This document shows positions 13,232-37,007 of a stretch of DNA of 40,389 nucleotides, piece after piece. Position 1 is the first letter of the stretch, and every line of letters begins with the position of its first letter. The translations under genes were made by a program, and so were the position numbers. The DNA is from Deltaproteobacteria bacterium (GTDB lineage: Bacteria > Desulfobacterota > Desulfobulbia > Desulfobulbales > SURF-16). The notes under the pieces were generated by a model. It was not told the DNA's origin and searched no databases. It saw only the letters and a list, made by a program, of their open reading frames with translations. The stretch is taken from contig JAOZSN010000003.1 of NCBI GenBank assembly GCA_029939635.1, forward strand, positions 1-40,389. The letters run 5' to 3'.

Positions 13232-13345
13232 CGAACATCGAACATCGAATTTTAAATAAGGTAATTGTTTTGTTGAATCGTGCCAGCGCAGCGTCTTCCG
13301 CATTGGATGTTCAGTGTTCAATGTTCGATGTTCGATGTTCATCTG
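13219..13345. repeat. Heptamer-armed inverted-repeat element, copy A (ORF-less)
   Basis: The left arm GAATATTGAACATCGAACATCGAACATCGAAT and right arm CATTGGATGTTCAGTGTTCAATGTTCGATGTTCGATGTTCATCTG flank a core with AATAAGGTA...TTGAATC...GCGCAGCG.CTTCC.CATT, homologous to copies B-E. It starts 1 nt after the mutS stop. Confidence 0.85.
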
Positions 13346-16030
13346 TTAGCTATCTTCCGCTTCGCTCTTCAGCTCATACAGCAAATTCAAAGCCTCCAAG
13401 GGGCTTATACTGTCCAAGGATAACCCTGCCACCTTTTCTTTAAAGCTGTCTGGTGCCTTGGGAAAGAGGGTAAGTTGGTTTGGCTCTCCTTTCTTGGCTG
13501 GAGGGCCAGGGGCAATAACCGGTGTGCCCTGGGCGTTTAGTTCTCCTGATTCAATATTGTGGAGGATCTCTTTGGCACGCTTGACTACATTTTTTGGCAC
13601 ACCAGCCAAGGCAGCTACCTGGATACCATAACTGCGGCTGGTGCCGCCGGCCAGTAATTTATGCAGGAAGATGATGGTGTCATCCCATTCACGTACACCA
13701 ATATGGAAATTTTTTACTCGTTTATGGGTTAAAGCAATCTCGGTAAGCTCATGATAATGGGTGGCAAAGATGGTTTTGCAGCCCTTGCCTTGCAGGTTGA
13801 CTAACTCTTCGGTGACAGCCCAGGCAATGGACAGGCCGTCAAAGGTAGAGGTGCCACGACCTATCTCGTCAAGGATGACTAGACTATGTGCCGTGGCATT
13901 GTTGAGGATATTTGCTGTCTCATTCATCTCCACCATAAAGGTGGATTGGCCGCGGCGCAGATCATCCATGGCTCCTACCCTGGTGAAAATACGATCCACC
14001 ACGCCGATTCTGGCTTCCTGGGCCGGCACAAAGGAACCCATCTGCGCCATGAGGGTGATGAGTGCTGTCTGGCGCAGCACCGTTGATTTGCCGGCCATGT
14101 TGGGGCCGGTAATAATGAGCACCTCTTGCCTGCTCTGATCCAGGTGGATATCGTTGGGCACAAAGCGACCACTGGCCAGAGAGCGTTCAATAACCGGGTG
14201 ACGTCCTTCCTTGATGATGATTTCATCACTGGTGTCAACCTGGGGCCGGGTGAAATGATAGCGTCGGGCTGCCTCGGCCATGGCTGTGTAAAAGTCTGTT
14301 GTGGCAACAAAGGCAGCTGCTGCCAGGATGCGAGAAGAGGCAGCAGCTATTTGGTTGCGGATCTCACTGAAGAGTTGGTATTCCAGTTCCAGTCGTTTTT
14401 CCTCTGCCCCTAAGACCTTGGCCTCAAACTCTTTAAGTTCCGGCGTGATAAAACGCTCGGCATTAGCCAGGGTCTGTTTGCGGATGTAGTGTTCCGGTAC
14501 CTTGTCCTGTTGGGCGCGGCTCACCTCAAGGAAGTAACCAAACACTTTGTTGAAGCCAATCTTCAGTTTGGCAATGCCGGTGCGTTCGCGCTCTTGACTC
14601 TCCAGGCCGAGGATGAGGCCTTTGCCATCTCTAAGGATATGGAGGAGTTCATCCAGCTCACTGTGGAATCCTTGCTTAATAAGCTTGCCTTCGCGTAATC
14701 CAACAGGTGAATCGTCGCGAATGGCCTCATCTAGTAAGGTTTGCATGTCTGTTACGGTGTCGAGTTTGACTGCCTCATCATGCAATATGCCTTGGCTGTT
14801 AGCGCAGAGTTCTTGTAAGCGCGGTAAGGTAGTGAGGGAGTGTTTAAGGGCGGTAAGGTCTCGGGCATTGGCAGACCCCAACACCACACGGCTGTTGAGC
14901 CGTTCCAGGTCATAGACCCCGTCCAGTAATTCGCGCAGTTCTTCGCGGATAGCCGTACCCGTGGCTTGGTGTTGCAGGCCCATGAGATCGGCCTGCACAG
15001 GGCCACCTCCATGGAAGAAGGCCACTGTGTCCAGGCGAGCATTAATGCGTATGGCGTCACGTAAGGGAAAGAGCAGGTTCTTTTTTAACAGCCGTGCCCC
15101 CATGGGGGTCTGGGTCAGGTCAAGGTTGGCAAGCAAGGAACCCTCGCGTTTGCCACCGATAATGGTTTGGGTCAGCTCAAGGTTGCGGCGTGAGGATTCA
15201 TCCAGCATGAGGATGGCTTCGCGTTCAATAAGGGTGAGGCGTTCAATATGGTTCAGGCTTGCCTTTTGGCTTTCTTGGATATAGTTGAGAAGGCCTCCTG
15301 CTGCCGCAATGCCGGCCTTAAACTGCTCACACCCAAAACCAGCCAGGTTGGTGGTTTGAAAATGTTCCAGCAGGGTCTCTCTGGCTGTTTCTGGGTGAAA
15401 GAGGGCGTGGGGTCGGGGGGTGAGGCAGAGGGTGGGCATGACCTCCAAGGCTTCGGTGAGGGTAGGGTCATCCTGTAGCTTCTCGGGCAGTAATAGCTCT
15501 GCCGGGGCCAGACGGCCAAGCTCTTCTATAACCTCAGCCAAATCCTCTGCCTCGCTGACCAGGAATTCACCGGTGGAGATGTCAAGCAGGCTGACGCCCC
15601 ATGTATGGTTGAAGGCAATGGCAGCCAGGTAACGGTTGCTTTTGTCGTCCAGTACAGCATCTTCGGTGACCACACCGGGGCTCACCACTCGTACCACCTC
15701 ACGCTTAACCACGCCTTTGGCGGTCTTCGGGTCTTCAACCTGTTCGCAGACGGCCACTCGATAGCCATTATTAACCAATTTGGCCAAATAGGAGGCCCCT
15801 GCATGGTGAGGTACACCGCAAAGTGGCACCCTGTTTTCATCATCCTTGCTGTTGCGCGAGGTAAGGGTGATGCCTAAGACCTTTGAGGCGGTGATGGCAT
15901 CATCAAAGAACATCTCATAGAAATCACCTAGCCGGTAAAAGAGTATGGCATCAGCATGCTGTTCCTTAATCTCTAGATATTGGCGCATCATGGGAGTTAT
16001 TTTAGGTTTGCTTTTCTTTTTTGTGGCCAT
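13346..16030 (-). CDS. mutS: DNA mismatch repair protein MutS
   Basis: 894 aa with the full-length MutS pattern: TPMMRQYLEIK, the GDFYEMF mismatch-binding motif, Walker A GPNMAGKST and the ST(F)MVEM motif. Confidence 0.97.
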   Translation of the reverse strand: MATKKKSKPKITPMMRQYLEIKEQHADAILFYRLGDFYEMFFDDAITASKVLGITLTSRNSKDDENRVPLCGVPHHAGASYLAKLVNNGYRVAVCEQVEDPKTAKGVVKREVVRVVSPGVVTEDAVLDDKSNRYLAAIAFNHTWGVSLLDISTGEFLVSEAEDLAEVIEELGRLAPAELLLPEKLQDDPTLTEALEVMPTLCLTPRPHALFHPETARETLLEHFQTTNLAGFGCEQFKAGIAAAGGLLNYIQESQKASLNHIERLTLIEREAILMLDESSRRNLELTQTIIGGKREGSLLANLDLTQTPMGARLLKKNLLFPLRDAIRINARLDTVAFFHGGGPVQADLMGLQHQATGTAIREELRELLDGVYDLERLNSRVVLGSANARDLTALKHSLTTLPRLQELCANSQGILHDEAVKLDTVTDMQTLLDEAIRDDSPVGLREGKLIKQGFHSELDELLHILRDGKGLILGLESQERERTGIAKLKIGFNKVFGYFLEVSRAQQDKVPEHYIRKQTLANAERFITPELKEFEAKVLGAEEKRLELEYQLFSEIRNQIAAASSRILAAAAFVATTDFYTAMAEAARRYHFTRPQVDTSDEIIIKEGRHPVIERSLASGRFVPNDIHLDQSRQEVLIITGPNMAGKSTVLRQTALITLMAQMGSFVPAQEARIGVVDRIFTRVGAMDDLRRGQSTFMVEMNETANILNNATAHSLVILDEIGRGTSTFDGLSIAWAVTEELVNLQGKGCKTIFATHYHELTEIALTHKRVKNFHIGVREWDDTIIFLHKLLAGGTSRSYGIQVAALAGVPKNVVKRAKEILHNIESGELNAQGTPVIAPGPPAKKGEPNQLTLFPKAPDSFKEKVAGLSLDSISPLEALNLLYELKSEAEDS

Positions 16031-22178: not shown

Positions 22179-24743
22179 ATGAAGAGTAAATGGACCGTTA
22201 TAGCTGCCCTCATGTTGCTCCTGGGCGTCAGTGCCATAGCCTTTGTTCTCTTTTTTGTCAGCAAGAGTCAACAGGGGCTGGAACGTTCCATCAATACCCA
22301 GGTTCGCGACACCAGAATTTTTATAGAAAGCCTTGAGGATCAGCTTGGTAATAGTTATCGCCGGCGAATTAAAGGGCTTCTTGATTACCGTACTGCGAAA
22401 ACTAAGGAGAAGGTTCTTCGATCTTTTGAGGAGCAGGACAGGGCTACTCTGCTGCGTTTATGCACGCCATTTTTACAACTCTTTCAAAACGAAAATTCTG
22501 GTTTTGCTACTTTTAGCTGGGTGCTACCTGATAACGAGGCTTTTCTGTTGGTGCATAACCCCAAGAAATTTGGTTTTGATGTCACGCCAATGCGGCCAGA
22601 TGTTGTAGAAGCTAACAGATCCATGCGGCAAATATCAAGCTATACGGTGTCTCCCGGTGGTCTGCATTTAAGCATTGTCCAGCCAGTGTTGTACGAGCAA
22701 CGACACCTTGGTGTTGTCCAGTTTGGGGTGCGGTATACATTTATTCTTGATGCCTTGCTGGAAAATACGAATCTGCTCGCGGCCATTGTTGTTGATGCTG
22801 ATCGGTTAAGTATTGTCAAAAAGGAGAAAAAACCAGCCATCATGGCGAATGATTATGCCATCCACACCCTGGATGAAGAGTTCTTCCGCGCCAGCAAGGA
22901 TAAGGTTGACTGGGGGCGTGATTGGCAGCGTGTCTCCATAGATGAGCGGCAGTATGTCTTTGTTAAGGCTAGGGCTTTGGCTGATTACCAGGGCCGCCCT
23001 GTGGCCCAGATTTTTGTGGCTCTGGATATCTCTGAGCAATCAGCGGCCTTGAGACGAGATATCCTCCTCATAGTGCTCCTTGCTGTGGCAGTGTTGATCA
23101 GCTCCTTGCTTATCCTCTATTTTGGCTATACCCCTCTCTTTACCCGGCTTATGGATGTGCAGTTGGTTGAGCATCTCAATGAGGAGTTGGAGGAGCGGGT
23201 GGCCCAGCGTACAGCAGCCCTTGAGGCCAGTGAAGATCGCTATCGTAGCATGTTTACCAATACCCATACCATTATGTATGTCATTGACCCTGTGACCGGC
23301 AGGATTATTGACGCCAACCCTGCCGCCAGTGGTTATTACGGTTACAGCCATGCTGAGCTGCTGACAATGAATATTGGCGATATAAATACGCTCTCAAAAG
23401 AAGAAATAGCAATAGAGGTGGAGCGTGCCAAAAATGAAGAGCGCAGCCATTTTAACTTTAGGCATCGCTTGGTTGATGGCACGGTGACGGATGTAGAGGC
23501 GTTCAGCGGTCCCATTATTCGAGATGGCAAGCAGCTGCTCTTTTCCATCATCCATGATGTGACCGAGAAGAAACGCATGGAGGATGAGCTGCTGCAGTCG
23601 CGGAAGATGGAGGCCATGGGTACCCTGGCTGGTGGTATTGCCCATGATTTCAATAATATTCTCACCGCCATTATCGGCTATGCTGAGCTGGTCAGGGATG
23701 AACTTGGCCCAGAGAGCCAGGAGAGGCATGATATTGAGCAGGTTCTTATTGGTGGTAAACGGGCTGCGTCTTTGGTTGCCCAGATTCTCACCTTCAGCCG
23801 TAAGTCTGACCATCGTCACCAGGTGATTAAGCCGCAGCAGGTGGTGGAGGAGGCCATGGAGATGATACGGGCATCATTGCCATCCACCATTGAAATGGTC
23901 ACCGAGATTGATGAGGCGTGTCCACAAATTTTAGCTGACCCCACCAATCTGCATCAGATTATTGTCAATCTCTGCACCAATGGCGCTCATGCCATGGTAG
24001 GTGATAAGGGACGTTTAGTTGTAAAGTTGGGCCAACGGCAGATTGGTGTTGCCGAGCTGCAAGGTATACGGAATGTGGAGCCAGGTCACTTTGTGGTGCT
24101 CTCTGTCAACGATAATGGTGCCGGGATGGATAGCCAGACCAAGGCACGCATCTTTGAGCCATATTTTACCACCAAGGAATTGCACAAGGGCAGTGGGCTT
24201 GGGTTGGCGGTTGTGCATGGGATCGTGAGTGCCTGTGCTGGTTTTATCACGGTGGATAGTGCCTTGGGCAAGGGTACCACTGTGGCTGTTCATCTGCCTG
24301 TGGTTATGGCGGGCGCAGAGGATAGCCCGCAGGACGACGTTGCCCTGGCAGTGCCCCATGGGGTGGAACATCTCTTGGTGGTGGATGATGAGGCTGTTAT
24401 CCTGGAGTTGCATACCATTATTCTGACAAAGTTGGGCTACAGGGTGACCGCCTGTTCCACGCCCCAGCAGGCCTTGGCTGAGATCAAGGCAGACCAGCAT
24501 GATTTTGACCTGTTGCTGACTGACCAGACCATGCCAGAAATGACCGGTATGGAATTGGCCCATGAGGTGATGAAGATCAGGGCGGATTTGCCCATTATTT
24601 TATGTACTGGTTATTCCTTTCACCTCTCAGAGCAAGAGGCCTTGGCCTTGGGTATCAGAAAATTTATCCAGAAACCACTGGAGCATAAAGACATGGCCCT
24701 GGCGGTGCGGGAGGTGCTGGATGGGATGAATAACGAACCGTAG
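22179..24743 (+). CDS. Hybrid sensor histidine kinase HK1 (periplasmic sensor, PAS, HisKA, HATPase, REC)
   Basis: Two TM segments flank a sensor domain of about 260 aa. It also has a PAS domain, the H-box AGGIAHDFNNILTAIIGYAEL, N/G boxes (DNGAGM, GSGLGLAVVHG) and a C-terminal receiver (LLVVDDE...LLLTDQTMPEMTG). Confidence 0.92.
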   Translation: MKSKWTVIAALMLLLGVSAIAFVLFFVSKSQQGLERSINTQVRDTRIFIESLEDQLGNSYRRRIKGLLDYRTAKTKEKVLRSFEEQDRATLLRLCTPFLQLFQNENSGFATFSWVLPDNEAFLLVHNPKKFGFDVTPMRPDVVEANRSMRQISSYTVSPGGLHLSIVQPVLYEQRHLGVVQFGVRYTFILDALLENTNLLAAIVVDADRLSIVKKEKKPAIMANDYAIHTLDEEFFRASKDKVDWGRDWQRVSIDERQYVFVKARALADYQGRPVAQIFVALDISEQSAALRRDILLIVLLAVAVLISSLLILYFGYTPLFTRLMDVQLVEHLNEELEERVAQRTAALEASEDRYRSMFTNTHTIMYVIDPVTGRIIDANPAASGYYGYSHAELLTMNIGDINTLSKEEIAIEVERAKNEERSHFNFRHRLVDGTVTDVEAFSGPIIRDGKQLLFSIIHDVTEKKRMEDELLQSRKMEAMGTLAGGIAHDFNNILTAIIGYAELVRDELGPESQERHDIEQVLIGGKRAASLVAQILTFSRKSDHRHQVIKPQQVVEEAMEMIRASLPSTIEMVTEIDEACPQILADPTNLHQIIVNLCTNGAHAMVGDKGRLVVKLGQRQIGVAELQGIRNVEPGHFVVLSVNDNGAGMDSQTKARIFEPYFTTKELHKGSGLGLAVVHGIVSACAGFITVDSALGKGTTVAVHLPVVMAGAEDSPQDDVALAVPHGVEHLLVVDDEAVILELHTIILTKLGYRVTACSTPQQALAEIKADQHDFDLLLTDQTMPEMTGMELAHEVMKIRADLPIILCTGYSFHLSEQEALALGIRKFIQKPLEHKDMALAVREVLDGMNNEP

Positions 24744-24830
24744 AATATCAAACAAGGAATTTCGAATTTAGAAGGATGATATTCCGGAGTCTCGCAGGCT
24801 CGCTTACTTGCGGTTCGCTGTTTAGCCGCT
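24743..24830. repeat. Degenerate or partial copy (G) of the F-subtype inverted-repeat element
   Basis: GAATATCAAACAAGGAATTTCGAATTTAGAAGGATGAT parallels copy F GAATATCGAGGTCACAAGAAATGTCGAATGATCAAGGGTGGATGAT. The downstream TGCGGTTCGCTGTTTAG parallels F TGCGGTTCGTTTGTTTTA. It begins within the HK1 stop codon. Confidence 0.4.
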
Positions 24831-25730: not shown

Positions 25731-28700
25731 ATGATTGCCCTAAAGCTACGTAGTCACTTTATCATCTATTTGACTCTTATTACTCTGGTTCTGTCGCTAA
25801 TTTTGGTCTATCTCTTGACCAATCGTTTAGCCGAGCAGGCCCTGCTGGGTTTAGATGAGTATGGTCAGGCCATGACTATGAACAGCGCTCTTATCTCTGC
25901 TGATTATCTGCTTACCGAGGACTATGCCACTCTGCAACAGTTTGCCGAGGATTATGCCAGTCGACCCAAGGTAAAAAAAGTCAGTATTGCTGATCGCTAT
26001 GGCTCCACCATTGCTTCTTCTGATATGAGTCGATTGGGTCAGCACTTAGCGGGGTCCCGTGCGGAGTGGGGAGAGGGAAGCACCTGCGAGATTAGTAGGG
26101 ATGCTGATGGCAAGGGACAGCTTATCGTCATGGCACCAATCAAGATGGATACCGTGCTTATTGGTTTTACCAAGGTGGTGATTTGCATGGATGCCATGGA
26201 GGCCTCTGTTGCTGCCAGTCGTCGCCAGGGGATATTGGTTGGTTTGGTCGCTTGGTGTTTGAGTGTTCTCTTTGGTCTCTATGTCGCAGGAAGCTTAAGT
26301 AAGCCCATGCAGCAGTTGACCAGGCGGGCTAACAAGATCAAGGCAGGTGATTTTAGCAGTGAGGAAGAGGTGGGCCAGCAGGTTCGTGAGCTGGGGGAAT
26401 TTTCCCAGGCCCTCAACGTCATGGCCAAGACCATCGGTGCCCGGGAAAAATCTCTGCGGGAAATGGTGGCTAATCTTGACATCTTACCCACCCCGGTTTT
26501 CTCCATTGATGCCCAGTTCCTTGTAACCTATATAAATCCAGCCGGGGCGGCGGCAGCCCATCTGACCCCGGCAGAATGTCTGGGCCATAAATGTGCGGAA
26601 CTGTTCAATACCCCCATCTGTAATACGGCCCACTGTCCCATGCGCCAGGCCATGGACAGTGGCCTGGTGAGTAATGGTGAAACCACCATTGGCCGTAATC
26701 AAGAGATTATACCCGTAAAGTTTACCACGGTGGCCTTTCGTGATGGGGATGGAGTGGTAACCGGTGGCCTGGAAAGTTTTATTGATATCTCAGAGTTACA
26801 GCACGCCTTTGCCCAGGCAGAGCTGGAGAATACGCTGCGTAATGCCCAGCTTGAGATCAGCGATAGATTACGGGGGGAGCAGGATGAGGAAACTCTCTGC
26901 ACTACCCTGCTGCGTGAACTTGCCAAGCATATTCCTTTTCAGGCTGGCACAATTTATCTGGTGGGTGAAGGTCATCTCCTTAATTTGCTGGCCAGTTATG
27001 CTGGCCAGCATAACTTTGAGTCTCGCCCTGTCTTTCATTTTGGCGAAGGTATCACCGGCCAGGCAGCCGTGGAAAAAAGACCCATTATGCTCAGCAACAT
27101 CCCGGATGATTATGTGCCGGTGTTATCCGCTTCCGGTAGCAGCATGCCTCGTCATATAATTGCCCTGCCCATTCTCTTTGAAGGCCATGTTTCGGGAGTG
27201 ATAGAGTTGGCGACCTTGAATGAGTTTGATGGCTTTTCCTTGGAATTGTTAGATCGGGTTCTGGAGAATGCCGCCATTGCCATTAATATGGCCCAGGCCA
27301 GGGCACGGGTTGGTCTATTGCTGGGCCAGACCCAGCAACAGGCTGAGGAGTTACAGTCTCAGCAGGAGGAGTTGCAGGCCAGCAATGAGGAGTTGCGTGA
27401 GCAGACTCAAGCCCTGCAAAAAACAGAAACCCAGCTCCAGCAGCAGGCGGAAGAACTCCAATCACAACAGGAGGAACTCCAGGTCACCAACGAGGAGTTG
27501 GCTGAACGGACGCAGAATCTGGAGCTCCAGCAAAACGAGGTGAGTCGAAAAAATGAGGCCTTGGCCACCCAACGTAATGAACTGCTCCATAAGACCGAGG
27601 CGCTTGAGACCAGCAATCGTTATAAGGCTGAGTTTTTGGCAAACATGTCCCATGAATTACGCACGCCGCTCAACTCTATTCTCATCCTCTCCCAACTCTT
27701 TGCCACCAATAAGGAGGGCAACCTGAATGGTAAGCAGTTGGAGTTTGCCCGCACCATCAATAGTTCTGGTACAGAACTCCTTACCCTTATTAACGAGGTG
27801 CTTGATCTGTCTAAGGTGGAGGCCGGTCATGTCCAACTGGACATTGTATCTTTAGATTTGCGTGATTTTTTGGACGCCATGGAACAGTCATTTGCTCCGG
27901 TTGCGACAGAGCGTAATATTACCCTGGTTACAGAGTTGCTTGATGTGCCGGCAAGCATAACTACCGATGCCCAGAAGTTGTTACAGGTTGTTAAAAATCT
28001 GCTGTCTAATGCCTTGAAATTTACTGAAAAGGGGGAGGTGCGGCTGCGTATCAGTCGGCCACCGGCAGATATGGATTGTGGAGTGCTGGCTGGTCGAGAC
28101 GGTGTGGCCATATCAGTTATGGATAGCGGTATTGGTATTGCCCCTGAAAAGCAAGATCTCATCTTTGAGGCCTTCCAGCAGGTGGATGGCTCCATAAGCC
28201 GCCGCTATGGCGGCACAGGTCTTGGTCTCTCCATTGCCAAGGAGTTTGCTGGCCTGTTAGGTGGAGAGATCCGCCTGACCAGTGAGGTTGGTCACGGTTC
28301 ATGCTTTACCGTCCTGGTGCCAGATATTCTTGCTGAACAATCTGTCCAGGAGGGTGAGACCACAAAGGTGGTCAGCGTTGCCCCTGTTGTTCTCCCTGCG
28401 GAGAAAAAGGAGTCGGTTCTAAAGGCAGGCCAACAGGCGGAAGAGGACAGGGCAGAGGAGGGGCAGGATGTTGCTGATGATCGGAAGAATTTGGCAGATG
28501 ATGACAAGATTCTGTTGATAATCGAGGATGATTCGGCCTTTAGTGAGGTTCTTGCTGATTTGGCCCATGAACGTGGTTTTAAGTGTGTCCTGGCCAGTGA
28601 TGGTGAGAGTGGTCTCCATTATGCTGATTATTATCAGCCTGGTGCCATTATTCTTGATATTGGTCTGCCTGGCATGGATGGCTGGCAGGTCATGGATAGT

Positions 28701-29675
28701 CTGAAGAAAAATTCCAAGACCAGTCATATCCCGGTTCATTTTATGTCTGCTGCTGATAAATCCCAACAGGCCAGGGAAATGGGTGCTATTGGTTATCTGG
28801 TGAAACCGGTAAGTGTGGAAAAGGTGCAGGAAACCTTTGCCATGCTGGAGGATGAGATCAGCCGCACTGTGAAAAAATTACTCATCGTTGAAGATCACCG
28901 TGATCAACGACGCAGTATGGTGGAGTTGATCAGTGACCCCCATATCGATATAAGCGGGGTGGCCACAGGTACTGAGGCCTGGAAACTGCTCAAAAAGGCC
29001 TCCTTTGACTGTATGATCCTTGATCTTGGTCTACAAGACATGGAGGGCTTCAAGTTGCTGGAGATGATCCGGGGCGATGAGGCACTCTGTAACCTACCGG
29101 TTATTATCTATACAGGCCGGGAGTTAACTCCGGATGAGGATGAGAAACTACGCCATTATTCATCGTCAATTATCATCAAGGGGGTCCAGTCACCAGAGAG
29201 GTTGCTGGCTGAGACCACCCTGTTCCTCCATCAGGTTGAGGCTGACCTGCCCGAGGATAAACAGCGCATGCTGGCCATGGCCCATAAGCGGGAGGATATC
29301 TTTGCGGCCAAAAAGGTATTGGTGGTGGATGATGATATGCGCAACGTCTTTGCCCTCTCCAGCGTATTGGAAGAAAAGGGCATGGAGGTGTTGGCCGCAG
29401 AAAACGGCAAAAAGGCCCTGGATATACTGGACAAAATTCAAGGTGTCAGCGTGGTGTTGATGGATATTATGATGCCGGAGATGGATGGTTTTGAGGCCAT
29501 GGCCCGGATTCGTTCCCAAGCCAAGTTTGCTAAACTTCCCATCATCGCCCTGACTGCCAAGGCCATGAAGGGTGATCGCCATAAATGCATTGAGGCTGGA
29601 GCCAATGATTATTTGGCCAAGCCGGTGGATGTGGAGAGACTTGTTTCTATGTTGCGGGTGTGGCTGTGTCAGTGA
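25731..29675 (+). CDS. Large hybrid sensor kinase HK2 (TM, sensor, TM, HAMP, Cys4-PAS, GAF, EELQ coiled coil, HisKA, HATPase, REC x3)
   Basis: 1314 aa. It contains HAMP (KPMQQLTRRANKIKAGDF), a PAS domain with C283/C288/C297/C302, and a GAF domain. It also has a duplicated 28-aa QQAEELQSQQEELQ(A/V)(S/T)NEEL coil and the H-box FLANMSHELRTPLN (His641). The G boxes are DSGIGI and GGTGLGLSI. The three receivers carry the motifs LLIIEDD, LLIVEDH and VLVVDDD. Confidence 0.93.
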   Translation: MIALKLRSHFIIYLTLITLVLSLILVYLLTNRLAEQALLGLDEYGQAMTMNSALISADYLLTEDYATLQQFAEDYASRPKVKKVSIADRYGSTIASSDMSRLGQHLAGSRAEWGEGSTCEISRDADGKGQLIVMAPIKMDTVLIGFTKVVICMDAMEASVAASRRQGILVGLVAWCLSVLFGLYVAGSLSKPMQQLTRRANKIKAGDFSSEEEVGQQVRELGEFSQALNVMAKTIGAREKSLREMVANLDILPTPVFSIDAQFLVTYINPAGAAAAHLTPAECLGHKCAELFNTPICNTAHCPMRQAMDSGLVSNGETTIGRNQEIIPVKFTTVAFRDGDGVVTGGLESFIDISELQHAFAQAELENTLRNAQLEISDRLRGEQDEETLCTTLLRELAKHIPFQAGTIYLVGEGHLLNLLASYAGQHNFESRPVFHFGEGITGQAAVEKRPIMLSNIPDDYVPVLSASGSSMPRHIIALPILFEGHVSGVIELATLNEFDGFSLELLDRVLENAAIAINMAQARARVGLLLGQTQQQAEELQSQQEELQASNEELREQTQALQKTETQLQQQAEELQSQQEELQVTNEELAERTQNLELQQNEVSRKNEALATQRNELLHKTEALETSNRYKAEFLANMSHELRTPLNSILILSQLFATNKEGNLNGKQLEFARTINSSGTELLTLINEVLDLSKVEAGHVQLDIVSLDLRDFLDAMEQSFAPVATERNITLVTELLDVPASITTDAQKLLQVVKNLLSNALKFTEKGEVRLRISRPPADMDCGVLAGRDGVAISVMDSGIGIAPEKQDLIFEAFQQVDGSISRRYGGTGLGLSIAKEFAGLLGGEIRLTSEVGHGSCFTVLVPDILAEQSVQEGETTKVVSVAPVVLPAEKKESVLKAGQQAEEDRAEEGQDVADDRKNLADDDKILLIIEDDSAFSEVLADLAHERGFKCVLASDGESGLHYADYYQPGAIILDIGLPGMDGWQVMDSLKKNSKTSHIPVHFMSAADKSQQAREMGAIGYLVKPVSVEKVQETFAMLEDEISRTVKKLLIVEDHRDQRRSMVELISDPHIDISGVATGTEAWKLLKKASFDCMILDLGLQDMEGFKLLEMIRGDEALCNLPVIIYTGRELTPDEDEKLRHYSSSIIIKGVQSPERLLAETTLFLHQVEADLPEDKQRMLAMAHKREDIFAAKKVLVVDDDMRNVFALSSVLEEKGMEVLAAENGKKALDILDKIQGVSVVLMDIMMPEMDGFEAMARIRSQAKFAKLPIIALTAKAMKGDRHKCIEAGANDYLAKPVDVERLVSMLRVWLCQ

Positions 29676-29684
29676 TTAAAAAAA

Positions 29685-30194
29685 TTGAACATCGAACGTC
29701 CAACATCGAACATCGAATGATGAATGAAAAGACAAAAGATGAAGACACAAACGTATGATTTGGAAGAGCGGTTGCTTGAGTATTCTGTACGAATTATAAA
29801 AATTGTTGAGCAGTTGCCAAACTCAAGAACGGGTAATCATGTTGCTGGGCAGTTATTACGCTCAGGAACATCGCCCTATCCAAATCATGGTGAGGCTCAG
29901 GCCGCTGAGTCACCAAATGATTTTATTCATAAGTTGCGTATCTCTCTAAAGGAGCTACGGGAATCGCAAAGATGGTTAAAGTTAAGTCAAAGGATCCCAC
30001 TCATAACAAAACCTGAGCTATTGGATAATATTTTGCTGGAGACAGAAGAGTTAATTAAGATTTTTGTAACCAGTATTAAGACGGCAGAGAAGAATAAGAG
30101 AAGGTGAATATGCTATCTCCTTGTCAATTAGTTAGAGCGCAGCTATTTCCTCATTCGACGTTGAACGTTCGATGTTCGATGTTCGACGTTCATC
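29685..30194. mobile_element. Heptamer-armed inverted-repeat cassette, copy E, carrying a four-helix-bundle protein gene
   Basis: The left arm is TTGAACATCGAACGTCCAACATCGAACATCGAATGATGAATG (29685-29726). The right arm is CATTCGACGTTGAACGTTCGATGTTCGATGTTCGACGTTCATC (30152-30194). They enclose ORF 29724-30107 and a 44-nt tail homologous to the cores of the short copies. Confidence 0.7.
29724..30107 (+). CDS. Four-helix-bundle protein (23S rRNA intervening-sequence protein family; Avd-like)
   Basis: 127 aa. YDLEERLLEYSVRIIKIVEQLP...GNHVAGQLLRSGTSPYPNHGEAQAAES..DFIHKLRISLKELRESQRWL matches the TIGR02436/PF05635-type pattern. An alternative ATG lies at 29739. Confidence 0.82.
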   Translation: MKRQKMKTQTYDLEERLLEYSVRIIKIVEQLPNSRTGNHVAGQLLRSGTSPYPNHGEAQAAESPNDFIHKLRISLKELRESQRWLKLSQRIPLITKPELLDNILLETEELIKIFVTSIKTAEKNKRR

Positions 30195-30206
30195 TTCTTC
30201 AAGGAT

Positions 30207-31043
30207 GTGCCAGTGACAACTGATCATGAAACCTCAAAAATCGAAGTCACCCTCCTTCTAGAGGCGATCTATCTGAAGTACGGCTATGATTTCCGCAATT
30301 ATTCCAGTGCCCATATCAGGCGCCGGATCAGGCGGCGTCAGGAGTTGACAGGTATGGAGAATATCTCGGCCATGCAGCATCGTCTCCTCCATGATGAAGA
30401 GTTTTTTCAGACCGTACTATATGACCTGTCGATTAATGTTACGGAGATGTTTCGTGATCCTGCCTTCTATCTGGCTGTACGTGAGAAAGTTGTGCCGATT
30501 TTGGCCACCCATTCTTTTATAAAGGTCTGGCATGCAGGTTGTTCAACCGGAGAGGAACTTTACTCCATGGCTATCCTGCTCAAGGAGGCAGGGTTGTATG
30601 ATCGTTTGCAGCTTTATGGCACTGATTTTAACGAATTAGTTTTACAGAAGGCCAGGGAAGGGATTGTGCCGGCCAAGGCGATAAAGGATTATACCGATAA
30701 TTATCAACGGGGCGGTGGCATCAGTTCATTTTCAGACTACTACACCGCAAAATATGAGCGTGCCTTGCTGGCTCCAGAGCTAAAAAAAAAGATACTCTTT
30801 GCCAATCATAACCTGGTCACCGATCAGGTCTTTGGGGAGATGCAGATGATTGTCTGTCGCAACGTGCTTATTTATTTTAGTCGAGAATTGCAAAAAAAGG
30901 TTATCACCCTTTTTTACGACAGCCTCTGTCGCGGCGGCATCCTCTGTCTTGGCAGCAGAGAGAGTCTGCAATTTTCAGGGTTGGCAGATCGTTTCAGCCA
31001 GCTGGTGGATGGTGAGCAGATTTATCAGAAGATGTATGAGTGA
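30207..31043 (+). CDS. cheR: CheR-type protein-glutamate O-methyltransferase
   Basis: Has the CheR N-terminal helical domain (YGYDFRNY, TEMFRDP) and the SAM-binding fold (VWHAGCSTGEELYSMAILL, IVCRNVLIYF). The start is GTG 30207 or 30213 (AAGGA RBS). Confidence 0.9.
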   Translation: MPVTTDHETSKIEVTLLLEAIYLKYGYDFRNYSSAHIRRRIRRRQELTGMENISAMQHRLLHDEEFFQTVLYDLSINVTEMFRDPAFYLAVREKVVPILATHSFIKVWHAGCSTGEELYSMAILLKEAGLYDRLQLYGTDFNELVLQKAREGIVPAKAIKDYTDNYQRGGGISSFSDYYTAKYERALLAPELKKKILFANHNLVTDQVFGEMQMIVCRNVLIYFSRELQKKVITLFYDSLCRGGILCLGSRESLQFSGLADRFSQLVDGEQIYQKMYE

Positions 31044-31050
31044 AAAGGAA

Positions 31051-31184
31051 TGAATGCCGAACATCGAACATTGAACATTGAACAGCGAATTTTGAATGTG
31101 GAAGCCGCTGCGCTCGGATTGATTCAAGGGATTCTGAAATAGATAAATACCTCATTGGGCGTTGGATGTTGGATGTTCGACGTT
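31051..31184. repeat. Heptamer-armed inverted-repeat element, copy B (ORF-less, inverted relative to C/D)
   Basis: The sequence reads GAACATCGAACATTGAACATTGAACAGCGAATTTTGAATGTGGAAGCCGCTGCGCTCGG...CCTCATTGGGCGTTGGATGTTGGATGTTCGACGTT. Its reverse complement aligns with copies C, D and A. Confidence 0.85.
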
Positions 31185-31212
31185 AAGTCTGTAAAATAGT
31201 GCAGGTGAGGCC

Positions 31213-31842
31213 ATGGCACAGCGAGAACAAAAAAAAATAGCCTACGACGCCATCGTCATCGGTGTCTCCTTCGGCGGTCTCCAGGCCCTGTTGTCTCTCT
31301 TGCCGAGCCTGGGTGCTGATTTTCCGGTGCCGATCATGGTGGTGCAGCATCATGCCGCCCAGGCCGATGATTTCTTGGCTCGTCATTTAGATAGCTTGTG
31401 TCAGCTTCAGGTTAAGATGGCTGAGGAAAAGGAGATGGCGCAGGCAGGAGTTGTCTATCTGGCCCCGGCTAATTATCATTTACTGGTAGAGGATAATCAG
31501 AGCCTCTCCCTTTCGGTTGATGAGAAGGTGAATTTTGCCAGACCAGCCATTGATGTCCTCTTTGAGAGTGCTGCAGATGCCTATGGGGCACGGTTGGTTG
31601 GTGTTGTCCTCACCGGTGCCAATAATGATGGTAGTAAGGGCTTGCGATGCATCAAGGAGTATGGTGGTTTGGCTGTGGTGCAGGACCCGCAAACTGCGGA
31701 GGCACCAAGTATGCCAGAGGCTGCCTTGGCAGCGTGCGAGGTGGATCATGTTGTGCCCCTTGCTGAAATAGGAGCGTTTTTGAATACGCTATTAATGGGA
31801 AAAATAAAAGATGAACGTCGAACATCGAACATTCAACATTGA
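31213..31842 (+). CDS. cheB: CheB-type protein-glutamate methylesterase, catalytic domain only (no receiver)
   Basis: 209 aa with GVSFGG (Ser), VVQH (His) and ARPAIDVLF (Asp) triad contexts, plus LTGANNDG. The last 10 codons and the stop lie inside element C. Confidence 0.88.
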   Translation: MAQREQKKIAYDAIVIGVSFGGLQALLSLLPSLGADFPVPIMVVQHHAAQADDFLARHLDSLCQLQVKMAEEKEMAQAGVVYLAPANYHLLVEDNQSLSLSVDEKVNFARPAIDVLFESAADAYGARLVGVVLTGANNDGSKGLRCIKEYGGLAVVQDPQTAEAPSMPEAALAACEVDHVVPLAEIGAFLNTLLMGKIKDERRTSNIQH

Positions 31843-31932
31843 ACATCTAATAAGGTACTATCAAGTTGAATTAGTGAGAGTGAAGCGATTCCTACATTCA
31901 AAATTCGATGTTCAATGTTCGACGTTCATCTG
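31810..31932. repeat. Heptamer-armed inverted-repeat element, copy C (ORF-less)
   Basis: The termini AGATGAACGTCGAACAT and ATGTTCGACGTTCATCT are perfect 17-nt inverted repeats. The core is AATAAGGTACTATCAAGTTGAATTAGTGAGAGTGAAGCGATTCCTACATTCAAAATTCG. Confidence 0.9.
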
Positions 31933-31952
31933 TGAAATTAAAAAATAAGACT

Positions 31953-32606
31953 ATGTCCCCCAAAACTACCATCCTCGCCGTTGATGATCGGCCAGAGAAT
32001 ATCTTAAGTTTAGAAGCCATGCTGGATGACCCTGATCTTAATATCATCTCCGCATCATCTGGTAATGAGGGCTTGGCTTTACTGCTTCAACATGATTGCG
32101 CCCTGGTGCTGCTTGATGTGCAGATGCCAGGGATGAATGGTTTTGAGGTGGCGGAACTCATGCGGGCCAGCAAGAAAACCCGAGAGATACCCATCATCTT
32201 TATTACTGCCATCAGCAAGGAGCGGGAGCATATTTTCAAGGGGTATGAATCGGGTGCGGTGGATTATATCTGTAAGCCGATCCAAGATCCCCTGGTGTTA
32301 CGGAGCAAGGTGCGGGTTTTCTGCCAACTCCATGAACAAAAACGTTTGATTGAGCAAAATTTGGAGGAACTGGCTGAAAAGAATAACCAGTTGGAAAAAC
32401 ACCTTGCTGAAATTCAAACCCTGCGAGGTATCTTGCCCATTTGTGCTGTCTGTAAGAAAATACGGGACGACAAGGGCTATTGGAACCAGTTGGAATCGTA
32501 TATGCATGAACACTCCGAGGTCAGGTTCAGTCATGGCTATTGTCCAGAATGTGCCGAGGCGGCCATGGCAGAGATTGACAAAATGAAAGTGGACAAAGAT
32601 GAGTGA
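31953..32606 (+). CDS. Response regulator: REC, coiled coil, and a Cys/His-rich C-terminal domain
   Basis: Receiver motifs ILAVDDRPEN, LVLLDVQMPGMNG and the conserved Lys context CKP. The C-terminus is PICAVCKKIRDDKGYWNQLESYMHEHSEVRFSHGYCPECAEAA. The start is at ATG 31953; the 31908 start is an artefact of the repeat arm. Confidence 0.9.
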   Translation: MSPKTTILAVDDRPENILSLEAMLDDPDLNIISASSGNEGLALLLQHDCALVLLDVQMPGMNGFEVAELMRASKKTREIPIIFITAISKEREHIFKGYESGAVDYICKPIQDPLVLRSKVRVFCQLHEQKRLIEQNLEELAEKNNQLEKHLAEIQTLRGILPICAVCKKIRDDKGYWNQLESYMHEHSEVRFSHGYCPECAEAAMAEIDKMKVDKDE

Positions 32607-32613
32607 TTAAAAA

Positions 32614-32718
32614 GATGAACATCGAACGTAGAACATTGAACATTCAACGTCGAATAAGGTACTATCTAATTTGAGTGAGAGTGAAGCGAATTCTACATTC
32701 AAAATTCGACGTTCATCT
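32614..32718. repeat. Heptamer-armed inverted-repeat element, copy D (ORF-less, short right arm)
   Basis: The sequence is GATGAACATCGAACGTAGAACATTGAACATTCAACGTCGAATAAGGTACTATCTAATTTGAGTGAGAGTGAAGCGAATTCTACATTCAAAATTCGACGTTCATCTG, nearly collinear with copy C. Confidence 0.9.
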
Positions 32719-32739
32719 GTTAAAATTTAAGATAAGGTC

Positions 32740-34686
32740 ATGTCCCCACAAACCACTATTCTCATCGTTGATGATCGCCCTGAAAATCTCTTGAGCCTGC
32801 GGGCCATGTTGGAAGATCTTGATATCAACATCATCTCTGCCTCCTCTGGCAATGAGGCCCTTGCCCTGTTGTTAGAGCATGAGTGTGCCTTAGTGCTGCT
32901 CGATGTGCAGATGCCGGAGATGAATGGTTTTGAGGTGGCTGAATTGATGCAGGCCAATACAAAGACCAGCACAATCCCCATCATCTTTATCACTGCCATC
33001 AGCAAGGATCAGGAACATATTTTTAAGGGCTATGCGGCCGGGGCGGTGGACTATATTTTTAAGCCCCTTGATCAGGCCCAGATCCTGGTCAGTAAGGTAA
33101 AGGTCTTTTGTGAGCTGTATGAGGCTAGGGAAAAGATCAAGCAGGCAGTTGATACCCAGCGCTTAAGTGAGCAACAATGGCAGCTGACCTTTGAGGCCAT
33201 CAGTGACCTGGTGACTATCCATGACACCAAATTTCACCTGCTGCGGGTGAATCGGGCCACGGCTGAGTTTTTTGGTAAGGAGCCGGAAGAGCTGGTGGGG
33301 CGCAAGTGTTATGATGTCTTTTGTGGCCAGAACAGCAAGTGCACATCGTGCCCAATTATCTCCTTGGAGCAGGATTTGCGTCCGCATACAGCAGAAATAA
33401 ATCATTCCGTGCTCAAAAAGACCTTTCAGGTCTCTGTCTCTCCCATCTTTGATGAGGCTGAGCAATTTATTGGTGTTGTCCATATTGCCAAGGATATCAG
33501 TGCCAGAAAAAAATTGGAGACCCAGTTGCACCAGGCCCAGAAAATGGAGGCCATTGGCACCTTGGCTGGTGGCATTGCCCATGATTTCAATAATATACTG
33601 ACCCCTATAGTTGGTTATGCAGCTCTGCTGCGGCGAGATGCCAAACCTGGTAGCCCCTTGCATAAGGGCTTGGGTATAATTGAGCAGGCAGCAGGGCGTG
33701 CTACTGAATTGGTAAAACAGATTCTCTCTTTTAGTCGTCAGCACGAGCATGAGATGATCAGTATTGCCATCCAGCCTATTATCAAAGAGGCTCTGAAGCT
33801 GTTGCGCTCCAGCTTGCCCGCCACCATAGAGATCCGTCAAGATATCGACATGGAGTGTGGAGCAATTATGGCTGACTCCACTCAGATTCACCAATTGTTG
33901 ATGAATCTCTGCACTAATAGCGGTCATGCCATGGCTGAGCATGGTGGGGTGTTAGAGATCTCTCTCCGCTGCCAAGAATTGTTGGCCAAAGATTGTGTCC
34001 AGTGGCCAGACCTTTCTTCTGGTCAGTATCTCCTGCTTGAGGTGAGTGATAGCGGATGTGGTATGGCTGCTGATCTGTTGGATCGGATTTTTGAACCCTA
34101 TTTCACCACCAAGGAAAAAGATCAGGGTACGGGTATGGGTTTGGCGGTGGTGCATAGTATTGTCACAGCCCAACAAGGGCAGATTAGTGTTACCAGTGAG
34201 ATTGGTCAGGGTACAACATTTCATATCCTCTTGCCTGTAGTAGGAAAACCTGGGGGGCGGCACAAGAAGGAGAAGAGTGATACGGTGCTCCCTTCAGGTA
34301 ACGAACATGTATTGTTGGTGGATGATGAAGAGTATGTGGTTATGGTCTATGGAGAGATCCTCCTCTCTCTAGGCTATCAGGTAAGCACAGAGACCAGTAG
34401 CCAGAAGGCGCTGGACTTGTTTCTGGCTGGTAAGGATGATTTTGATATAGTCATCACCGATCTCACCATGCCAGAGATGACCGGTATTGAACTGGCACAC
34501 GAAATCATAGCTATTCGGCCTGAAATTCCCATAATACTATGTACAGGGATTAGTGAGTTGATTGACGCTGAGCAGGCCCAGGATATTGGTCTTCGTGCCT
34601 ATCTCCATAAGCCGGTAAGCATCCAAGATATGGGCCAGGTAGTACGGCGTGTTTTGGATGGGGAAAAACTACCTGAAATCCTTTGA
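32740..34686 (+). CDS. Hybrid sensor kinase HK3 (REC, Cys4-PAS, HisKA, HATPase, REC)
   Basis: The N-terminal receiver appears roughly 70-75% identical by eye to that of the preceding response regulator. It has a PAS domain with CYDVFCGQNSKCTSC and the H-box AGGIAHDFNNILTPIVGYAALL. It also has DSGCGM and GTGMGLAVVH boxes and a C-terminal receiver paralogous to that of HK1. Confidence 0.93.
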   Translation: MSPQTTILIVDDRPENLLSLRAMLEDLDINIISASSGNEALALLLEHECALVLLDVQMPEMNGFEVAELMQANTKTSTIPIIFITAISKDQEHIFKGYAAGAVDYIFKPLDQAQILVSKVKVFCELYEAREKIKQAVDTQRLSEQQWQLTFEAISDLVTIHDTKFHLLRVNRATAEFFGKEPEELVGRKCYDVFCGQNSKCTSCPIISLEQDLRPHTAEINHSVLKKTFQVSVSPIFDEAEQFIGVVHIAKDISARKKLETQLHQAQKMEAIGTLAGGIAHDFNNILTPIVGYAALLRRDAKPGSPLHKGLGIIEQAAGRATELVKQILSFSRQHEHEMISIAIQPIIKEALKLLRSSLPATIEIRQDIDMECGAIMADSTQIHQLLMNLCTNSGHAMAEHGGVLEISLRCQELLAKDCVQWPDLSSGQYLLLEVSDSGCGMAADLLDRIFEPYFTTKEKDQGTGMGLAVVHSIVTAQQGQISVTSEIGQGTTFHILLPVVGKPGGRHKKEKSDTVLPSGNEHVLLVDDEEYVVMVYGEILLSLGYQVSTETSSQKALDLFLAGKDDFDIVITDLTMPEMTGIELAHEIIAIRPEIPIILCTGISELIDAEQAQDIGLRAYLHKPVSIQDMGQVVRRVLDGEKLPEIL

Positions 34687-36837: not shown

Positions 36838-36870
36838 TGGGGGAGCCAGGTAACGCCTTTATATTATTAA

Positions 36871-37001
36871 CAACGAATATCGAGGTCACAAGAAATGTCG
36901 AATGATCAAGGGTGGATGATGTCTTAATAAATAAAGAAAATATACCCCCAAGGGCACTTCCTTCGACATTCGAAATTTCTTGTTCGATATTCTGCGGTTC
37001 G
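36871..37001. repeat. Inverted-repeat element, diverged subtype, copy F
   Basis: GAATATCGAGGTCACAAGAAATGTCGAATG pairs with CATTCGAAATTTCTTGTTCGATATTC. The core ...GGGCACTTCCTTCGACATTCG echoes the G.G.CTTCC.CATTC core of copies A-E. It lies between the PSP1 gene stop (37008) and the metG start (36837). Confidence 0.7.
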
Positions 37002-37007
37002 TTTGTT

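Follow-up and report, generated by a model that had tools for sequence, protein, structure and literature searches.

An IVS-type four-helix-bundle cassette and its probable deletion derivatives in the gaps of a chemotaxis-like operon of a Deltaproteobacteria bacterium

In a 40,389-nt stretch of DNA from a Deltaproteobacteria bacterium (GenBank assembly GCA_029939635.1, contig JAOZSN010000003.1, positions 1 to 40,389; the whole stretch is referred to below as the window), a chemotaxis-like operon is interrupted by an element with inverted arrays of the heptamer GAACATC at both ends, and several described systems bear comparison with it. The Correia elements of Neisseria (also Neisseria miniature insertion sequences, NEMIS) are miniature inverted-repeat transposable elements (MITEs) of 100–150 bp that exhibit terminal inverted repeats and a TA duplication and form mRNA hairpins cut by RNase III. 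Repetitive extragenic palindromes and bacterial interspersed mosaic elements (REP/BIME) are recognised by imperfect palindromes of 20–40 nt, a conserved GTAG-type head and a REP-associated tyrosine (RAYT) transposase. Short tandemly repeated repetitive (STRR) sequences, tandem heptamers of cyanobacteria, were reportedly described by Mazel and colleagues in 1990. The accessory protein Avd of diversity-generating retroelements forms a positively charged barrel of five subunits, binds a defined RNA element and is indispensable to its reverse transcriptase. Direct repeats of TAACTGA are found in Beggiatoaceae, Cyanobacteria and Bacteroidetes, where they are one-sided and mostly lie just upstream of start codons (MacGregor 2015, PMC4679880); STRR and TAACTGA repeats alike are intergenic, comprise 2–6 units, are patchily distributed across phyla and are suspected of horizontal spread, without a known mechanism or binding protein. 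Finally, intervening sequences (IVSs) of 23S rRNA that carry an S23p open reading frame (ORF) have been known since the early 1990s, with examples from Leptospira (Ralph & McClelland 1993) and Coxiella burnetii (Warrier et al. 2016, PMC4990558), whilst where they come from, how they move and what their protein does have so far found no explanation: the Coxiella IVS measures 428–444 nt and possesses a 28-bp terminal stem around the S23p ORF, which is cut mid-stem by RNase III (PMC4990558).

The description that fits the element in the window best is that of an IVS-type four-helix-bundle cassette residing in operon gaps, accompanied by its deletion derivatives. The operon spans 25.7–34.7 kb, with five genes on one strand, and all four gaps within it are filled by the element: a full-length cassette (E) and three ORF-less miniatures (B, C and D), with a further miniature (A) and a degenerate copy (F) elsewhere in the window (Table 1). 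The ORF of cassette E matches PF05635 (23S_rRNA_IVP; 50.4 bits, E 2.8e-13, cutoff 33.8) and TIGR02436, the "four helix bundle protein" family (83.7 bits, E 9.7e-24, cutoff 24), and its product matches the structure of Bacteroides BT_0352 (PDB ID: 2RLD, E 2e-16). The AlphaFold2 model of this protein (pLDDT 92.7) is a four-helix bundle, for which the top Foldseek matches are 2RLD (TM 0.79–0.89), Xanthomonas Xcc0516 (PDB ID: 2GSC, TM 0.74–0.87) and Avd (PDB ID: 4DWL, TM 0.72–0.80). Cassette proteins are 122–127 residues long, and no catalytic motif or transposase domain was recognised in them by family and structure searches. Both 2RLD and 2GSC contain chains A–E, and by analogy with these homologues and with Avd the cassette protein is a putative homopentameric ring. 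Whilst the fold is shared with Avd, sequence identity to it is only about 15%, and no reverse transcriptase, template or variable repeat lies beside the cassette in the window or in the other loci inspected.

Comparison with the rRNA IVSs reveals an ORF of the same PF05635 family, a comparable size (428–444 nt in Coxiella, about 470–610 nt here) and terminal inverted repeats that form a stem, 28 bp in Coxiella and a predicted 25–35 bp here; both are regarded as selfish, horizontally acquired elements. The arms of the present cassette consist of tandem heptamers, and the 28 bp of the Coxiella stem equal four times seven. The differences lie in location and number, since the element occupies operon gaps rather than helix 25 or 45 of rRNA, is present in multiple copies and has given ORF-less derivatives. 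There is no rRNA in the window, and all copies lie between protein-coding genes, so that none is situated inside a 23S or 16S rRNA helix.

In order to delimit the copies, the window was searched with the heptamer pattern CGAACATCGAACAT at up to 3 mismatches, which returned 31 matches where 2.3 were expected, a number reached by none of 100 shuffles. All matches but one fall in five places (13218–13341, 29686–30192, 31058–31186, 31812–31928 and 32616–32643), and Tandem Repeats Finder reports period-7 arrays at the same five places, with 2.4–5 copies per arm. The heptamer arms that the original prediction had seen in B, C, D and E are thereby borne out, and our boundaries for the three miniatures agree with the predicted ones within a few bases. 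The same holds for the perfect 17-nt terminal inverted repeat of C, AGATGAACGTCGAACAT, and for the inversion of B, whose positions 31066–31127 are 79% complementary over 62 nt to 31866–31927, B thus being inverted relative to C, D and the operon. The predicted density of five copies in about 3 kb was too high: four copies (E, B, C and D) occupy the operon, and the fifth, A, lies 16 kb away from them, oriented as C and D on the plus strand and consequently opposite to local transcription. Cassette E is framed by inverted arms at 29687–29724 and 30147–30184 that are 82% complementary, and its full RNA is predicted to fold with the arms paired (z -4.2). On either side, in inverted orientation, an array of 4–5 tandem GAACATC heptamers ends in (A)AAGATGAAC. 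D possesses a shortened right arm (about 32700–32716). In case of F, the profile built from the miniatures matches on both strands (nhmmer E 0.005 and 0.011); its heptamers have decayed, and the long hairpin is kept (z -4.9). Folding of each gap, which had been proposed along with the prediction, gave hairpins with z between -2.4 and -6.4 for the elements of the window. The same profile gave a very weak match on both strands (E 0.05–0.1) at 24722–24794, in a 32-nt gap between a sensor kinase gene and a phosphonate-binding protein gene, which may be a remnant or a chance match.

Table 1. Copies of the element and genes of the operon in the window
Feature	Position	Strand	Remarks
Cassette E, full-length	29680–30196	+	hybrid histidine kinase/cheR gap; only copy in the window with an intact ORF
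E left arm	29687–29720	+	about 4.4 GAACATC units; Tandem Repeats Finder period 7 at 29687–29717
E four-helix-bundle gene	29739–30107	+	longest ORF starts at 29724; homologues start at ATG 29739
E 3' tail	30108–30153	+	stop codon to right arm; part kept in miniature cores
E right arm	30154–30196	+	(GATGTTC)n, terminating in GTTCATCT
Miniature B, ORF-less	31050–31186	-	cheR/cheB gap; arms 31058–31089 and 31161–31184; nhmmer E 6e-35 on minus strand
Miniature C, ORF-less	31809–31931	+	cheB/response-regulator gap; arms 31813–31847 and 31897–31927; fold z -6.3
Miniature D, ORF-less	32612–32716	+	response-regulator/HK3 gap; left arm 32616–32654; fold z -3.5
Miniature A	13218–13344	+	between mutS (13346–16030, minus strand) and amidase gene; fold z -5.8, -6.4
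Degenerate copy F	about 36866–37006		strand not assigned; between PSP1-domain gene and metG (minus strand)
Hybrid histidine kinase gene	25731–29675		first of five same-strand operon genes
cheR	30207–31043		second operon gene
cheB	31213–31842		third operon gene
Single-domain response regulator gene	about 31953–32606		fourth operon gene
Response-regulator/histidine-kinase hybrid (HK3) gene	32740–34686		fifth operon gene

The relationship between miniatures and cassette was analysed with the arms removed. Cores C and D align with a score of 57 against a null of 12.4 +/- 2.2, whilst A–B and B–C score 34 and 29, values that none of 2000 shuffles reached. Local alignment of the cores to the 3' tail of E, to which the original prediction had held all of B, C and D to be homologous, reaches significance in C (1 of 2000 shuffles) as well as in B (20 of 2000), whilst it is marginal in D and also in A (about 0.08–0.1). 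The second part of that proposal, a clean deletion of the ORF, does not hold within E itself: because the junction of C and D can be derived from E only with additional gaps, E is not their direct parent and appears as a relative of it. As a type of junction, however, the deletion is exact in another genome. In a Thermodesulfobacteriota metagenome-assembled genome (MAG; locus L009), a miniature corresponds to the full copy of the same genome with left arm and 3' tail fused at ATCGAATAAGG, and this junction is also present in A, C and D. The L009 pair indicates that miniatures arise by deletion between short direct repeats, namely the last left-arm unit and ATCGAAT near the 3' end of the ORF, leaving the arms and the 3' tail behind. 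In addition, paired-arm elements across genomes cover a continuous size range of 91–610 nt, and the 120 loci of a genome scan comprise 4 full-length ORFs and 20 loci with partial remnants of either ORF end, a continuum that reads as a deletion series. We consider it probable that a selfish cassette of about 0.5 kb, of which E is an intact example, gave rise by internal deletion to A, B, C, D and the decayed F, all of them non-autonomous.

In order to determine whether the elements were gained, the orthologous operon was compared on contigs of lineages whose CheB is 72–76% identical. At the E site, the kinase gene and cheR either overlap or leave 3 nt between stop and start (L003, L005); at the B site, cheR and cheB are separated by 18–22 nt or overlap, without arms; the C site measures 21 nt in L006 and 123–153 nt without heptamers in L002 and L005, and at the D site the gaps of L002 and L005 are larger and likewise free of heptamers. 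Since these gaps are short or empty of heptamers, the elements are insertions, which entered the operon once its lineage had parted from relatives. Filled and empty orthologous gaps thus exist side by side at the level of lineages, an insertion polymorphism of the kind expected of MITEs. In the closest relative, L006, the right end of an element immediately precedes cheR, and the response-regulator stop is directly followed by a truncated element, at the D site, whilst the cheR/cheB and cheB/response-regulator gaps are short and empty. The simplest history suggested by these alignments places the E-site and D-site insertions, common to L006, first, and B and C later, in the lineage of the window. 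The last codons of the L006 kinase (..VWLCQ*; L006 1–80) are found downstream of the element's right end, and those of the window (29650–29690) upstream of E: either the insertion points lie about 20 nt apart or the target stretch was duplicated, the left side being missing from the L006 contig.

These comparisons also bear on the idea that the operon copies stem from local duplication or gene conversion, for instance of C and D along with the neighbouring paralogous receiver domains. Such an origin would fit a 107-nt direct repeat (31902–32008 against 32689–32795, 77%) that runs from the right end of either element into the 5' end of the adjacent receiver gene, as well as the fact that four adjacent gaps are filled and that C and D have the most similar cores. 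The receivers are nevertheless old paralogues, 74% identical at the nucleotide level here and 68–72% identical in relatives that carry both genes and no elements; A and F reside in unrelated operons, B is inverted and the family is dispersed in many genomes. A recent tandem duplication as the source of C and D was rejected given the age of the paralogues and the missing elements in relatives. We regard local duplication as most improbable; local copying from D to the C site is conceivable, which would itself be a form of spread.

The family extends well beyond this locus. With the degenerate 22-nt terminus pattern AGATGAACRTCGAACRTYSAAC, at least 120 stretches were obtained from a species-representative genome collection, mainly in Desulfobacterota, which does not agree with the motif being found only here, a result that the original prediction had said would favour a locus-specific regulatory structure. 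Copies matching AGATGAACRTCGAACRTYSAAC also occur on a 1.2-Mb Planctomycetia contig and a 559-kb Verrucomicrobiae contig, and another AGATGAACRTCGAACRTYSAAC copy occupies a cas1 gap in Akkermansiaceae, where the downstream reading frame looks like cas2; the carriers from these three groups are all high-GC genomes. Three full copies on long contigs share the same arms and lie in sense orientation in the gaps following RNase II, between PFK and GDT1 and between pilB and pilC. Longer partners with the termini of the miniatures (E, L009, L010, L011, L078 and L117) encode as their sole protein no known transposase. Where both neighbours of an element were called (67 elements), 49 pairs are co-directional, 14 convergent and 4 divergent, and only 5 of 81 elements lie inside long ORFs. 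The cassette sits a few tens of bases after the upstream stop codon and usually in sense: all six full copies with co-directional neighbours are co-oriented with both, as are three of three cassettes in Bacteroides and 8 of 12 plasmid-borne ones. The orientation of miniatures, as assigned by BLAST against full copies, proved unreliable, and the resulting sense count of 27:8 was not used.

The cassette gene itself seems to be maintained. Between copies of different genomes, dN/dS is 0.05–0.23 where synonymous sites are unsaturated; between the window and other copies, the proportions of synonymous and nonsynonymous differences are 0.75–0.83 (saturated) and 0.07–0.10, respectively. These values point to genes that are old, functional and under purifying selection and not to a recent sweep. 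Thousands of homologues of the window protein exist at 80–90% identity, whilst none of the neighbouring host genes has a homologue above 76%. The 22-nt terminus recurs across genomes despite the saturation of synonymous sites; a hairpin could persist with any sequence, so that the constraint on the arms appears to act on their specific sequence.

The original prediction had likened cassette and miniatures to an autonomous element and its MITEs. What stands of this reading is that the miniatures are ORF-less derivatives of an E-like cassette, dispersed and gaining sites; they are not MITEs in the strict sense, as there is no consistent target-site duplication (TSD) and no recognisable transposase. 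As with bacterial MITEs, the miniatures are short (105–137 nt), non-coding, bounded by terminal inverted repeats, present in 5–6 copies in the 40 kb of the window and in many copies per genome, related to a longer ORF-bearing element by internal deletion, placed in intergenic, often co-transcribed positions and found in both orientations. Unlike MITEs, they lack a consistent TSD, their full-length partner is without a recognisable transposase, their arms are repetitive with period 7 and their terminal sequence recurs across phyla. In the aligned termini of 41 elements no consistent TSD was detected, and for 81 flank pairs the longest shared flank word averages 5.3 nt against 4.9 nt for mismatched pairs, with no constant duplicated motif. 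Apparent conservation beyond the termini is due to the inverted repeat itself (AAAAG/CTTTT) or to an outer nested element. In several other MAGs (L120 6500–6900, L190 2240–2720, L144, L169, L104 and L164) the GAACATC element is nested in such a second, outer inverted-repeat element, which ends in CATAAGCGCTAAGTTrTTTT...AAAACAACTTAGCGCTTATG, has asymmetric, conserved inner halves and is absent from the window. Another rearranged region is seen in L011 (19244–20060) and L012 (19400–20240), 94.6% identical, with three and two tandem deletion derivatives, respectively, one of them rearranged, which suggests recombination between neighbouring copies; as a pair of filled and empty sites the two were rejected, being too rearranged for clean boundaries.

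A small protein without a transposase domain raises the question of whether the arms are read by an enzyme outside the cassette, such as a recombinase of the host or of another element, an IS200/IS605- or RAYT-like single-strand transposase or a reverse transcriptase, with the four-helix-bundle gene as cargo or as an Avd-like accessory factor. The protein of about 120 residues without known catalytic motif would be in keeping with this, as would the dependence of its structural relative Avd on a reverse transcriptase, the lack of a TSD, which resembles hairpin-dependent single-strand transposition, and the large excess of ORF-less over ORF-bearing copies among the terminus matches. On the other hand, no further gene regularly accompanies the cassette across the roughly 100 loci inspected, on which the wider pattern rests, and the type of heptamer changes with the four-helix-bundle subfamily across phyla, which is hard to explain by an unlinked enzyme. 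We therefore deem an outside reader of the arms unlikely.

This connection between heptamer and protein was analysed across the PF05635 family, starting from a metagenome scan of 80 loci whose proteins are 40–90% identical to that of the window. In the 68 PF05635 loci retrieved with both flanks, period-7 arrays are found upstream in 44 and downstream in 52, compared to 11 of 366 control windows, whilst periods 5, 6, 8 and 9 are near zero. Arms have a median length of 4.4 units, with 4–5 units in 88 of 120. The heptamer follows the identity to the window protein: AACATCG at 77–90%, AACATCC or AACATTC at 55–61%, and AATTGCG, AAGGCGT and others at 40–48%, with a rank correlation (rho) of -0.59 between protein identity and heptamer distance that none of 500 label permutations matched. 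The 2RLD-type gene of Bacteroides lies in the araD/araA and aminotransferase/DAHP-synthase gaps; its 31-nt flanking arrays, (AATTGAC)n and (GTCAATT)n, are inverted and 94–97% complementary. Amongst 12 plasmid-borne PF05635 genes of cultured organisms, 9 exhibit clear inverted arrays, each with its own heptamer: CAATTCG and TAATTCG in Nostoc, AATCCCC/AATCGTA in Planktothrix, ATGAAGG in Chlorohelix, GAAAGTG in Treponema, ATTAGTG in Bernardetia, ATTTTAG in Gloeocapsa and ACTGGTC in Euhalothece. Thus, by sequence comparison, heptamer-array arms accompany PF05635 genes in most of the loci inspected, in several phyla, and co-vary with the protein subfamily. In the searchable part of the literature, neither a link between PF05635 and heptamer repeats nor these heptamer strings were found.

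Two observations on arm architecture accompany this pattern. Arms can expand to 8–28 units (L240, a 190-nt array; L258, 83 nt; L287 1300–1400; L292 1340–1430; L009 9937–9992), including (ATTAGTG)15 in Bernardetia and (ACTGGTC)12 in Euhalothece, and therefore the arrays also behave as unstable tandem repeats. In Bacteroides and Treponema (L197 2936–2999; L286 1300–1480), the left arm is directly followed by an inverted array, so that an "arms-only" hairpin immediately precedes the ORF; behind the ORF comes a third array.

The arrays share with STRR and TAACTGA repeats their tandem 7-nt direct repeats, the small number of units and the intergenic location; the cyanobacterial and Bacteroidota PF05635 genes inspected are flanked by arrays of AATCCCC, TAATTCG, CAATTCG, ACTGGTC and ATTAGTG. 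They differ in that the present arrays are paired in inverted orientation and either enclose a PF05635 gene or derive from such a unit, whereas those described are linked to no gene family, and in that the GAACATC unit of the window is distinct from CCCCAGT, TTGGTCA, CAACAGT and TAACTGA; of the described units only near-variants were seen, beside PF05635 genes of Euhalothece (ACTGGTC) and Chondrinema.

How such a cassette could work may be outlined as follows. Because it sits in operon gaps, usually in sense, the cassette would be expressible by read-through; promoter-like matches occur at chance level when compared to shuffled sequence, giving no sign of a promoter of its own. The heptamer arrays are the predicted recognition sites of the cassette's own protein, with one heptamer per subunit of the pentameric ring, a proposal for which the five chains of 2RLD and 2GSC, the pentameric, RNA-binding Avd, the arms of 4–5 units and the co-variation of unit and protein are the reasons and to which we give an even chance. 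If the arms are recognised by the protein, miniatures that consist of arms only could persist and be served in trans. In the polycistronic transcript the arms would pair to a stem of about 25–35 bp, a putative RNase III substrate, and the cistrons would be separated; whether the stem of the operon transcript is cut in this way, by analogy with the Coxiella IVS, we rate as evenly balanced. Cistrons whose translation is coupled in relatives would be uncoupled by such a cut. The DNA may, for instance, be moved by an enzyme of the host or of a retroelement that the Avd-like protein recruits. In any event, hairpins are to be expected in the mRNA, where they may have side effects: with tightly coupled genes now split by long hairpins, expression of the operon may change.

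The reverse perspective, in which the host selected the hairpins as intercistronic RNA elements comparable to REP/BIME or enterobacterial repetitive intergenic consensus (ERIC) sequences, had been offered as the alternative in the original prediction. They would then adjust how strongly cheR, cheB and the genes for response regulator and kinase are expressed relative to each other, as mRNA stabilisers, processing sites or attenuators, the likeness to the cassette being secondary. It is true that every copy stands in a transcribed gap between co-directional genes, that the predicted stems are strong (z down to -6.4), that each gene downstream of an element retains its own Shine-Dalgarno-like sequence and that the related rRNA elements are processed by RNase III. 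However, the corresponding operon of relatives, with its tightly coupled genes, lacks the elements; their orientation varies, A and B being opposite to local transcription; the same sequence recurs in unrelated operons of several phyla; and stem mismatches show no excess of G.U over A.C, neither on the transcribed strand (46 vs 49) nor in element sense (70 vs 66), so that selection for RNA pairing is unsupported. The window as a whole gave no Rfam match at the gathering threshold; at E <= 1, region 29600–32800 matched only microRNA precursor models and one small RNA model, consistent with a generic hairpin. Intrinsic terminators are not more numerous than in shuffled sequence, the sole terminator-like match in an element being the right arm of E folding on itself. 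With REP/BIME and ERIC (intergenic repeat units, IRU) of enterobacteria, the elements share imperfect palindromes, transcribed intergenic regions of operons, either orientation and high copy number; in sequence and size they are unrelated to them, with units of more than 100 nt and heptamer arrays, and they derive from a protein-coding cassette. No RAYT or IS200/IS605-like gene was called in the window or at the loci inspected. The RNA-element alternative is thus left without support, and we judge it decidedly unlikely.

Several points weigh against our own account of a mobile cassette whose protein reads its arms. The mismatch counts above give no indication of selection for RNA pairing, and the RNase III step is an analogy. 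Co-variation of heptamer and protein would equally be produced by the co-inheritance of linked sequences. Mobility is inferred from distribution alone, as there is neither a TSD nor a catalytic domain, and several of the matches outside Desulfobacterota lie on short MAG contigs and may be mis-binned. Three of the 12 plasmid-borne genes (L283, L290 and L293) exhibit arrays that are weak or not simply inverted, and two plasmid cases are not co-oriented with their neighbours. Finally, a Bacteroides cassette occupies the same araD/araA site with a protein only 75% identical to the query: this cassette stayed put, and therefore such elements can be very stable and movement may be rare.

In spite of this, we put forward, tentatively and as a possibility that we hold to be somewhat doubtful, a more general interpretation: that PF05635 proteins are sequence-specific readers of tandem heptamers and that gene and arrays together form a widespread, unrecognised class of transposase-less mobile cassettes, which would include the ORF-bearing rRNA IVSs and be the source of at least some STRR/TAACTGA-like arrays and of the hairpin miniatures in operons of many phyla. 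The evidence that started from the window ties the IVS protein family to the tandem-heptamer puzzle of cyanobacteria and sulfur bacteria, with the hypothesis that the protein binds its own heptamers. The heptamer link also offers a simple explanation for the recurrence of PF05635 beside cas and defence operons: the published "associations" with CRISPR-Cas may reflect insertion into operon gaps and, if PF05635 proteins are such readers, associations with CRISPR-Cas and defence systems would be hitch-hiking insertions and not functional partnerships. PF05635 cassettes or hairpins were seen in defence operons at L099 (5079–5216), L283 (1510–1857), L290, L284, L285, L289 and L291, in contexts such as cas1/cas2, a gap between helicase and N6-methylase genes in three unrelated taxa, and a gap between DUF1156 and Swt1-HEPN genes.

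The insertions further affect annotation, as arms extend or truncate genes. The cheB ORF extends 34 nt into element C (31809–31842), such that its last 11 codons are element sequence and its stop (31840–31842) falls inside the left arm of C. The cheR gene of the window possesses a GTG start and an N-terminus that differs from those of relatives (30207–30250).

A further type of array was observed on high-GC virus-like contigs, which contain many one-armed (GAACATC)4–5 arrays on the coding strand (L016 3330–3368, 3561–3598, 4987–5025 and 5654–5691; also L054, L068 and L076), the contigs including IMG/VR 3300012347_000612 and 3300033145_001804. No partner arm and no PF05635 gene were present in the pieces of these contigs examined. 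Each one-armed array is followed directly by a purine-rich stretch that looks like a ribosome-binding site and by a start codon, which resembles the arrangement of the TAACTGA repeats (MacGregor 2015).

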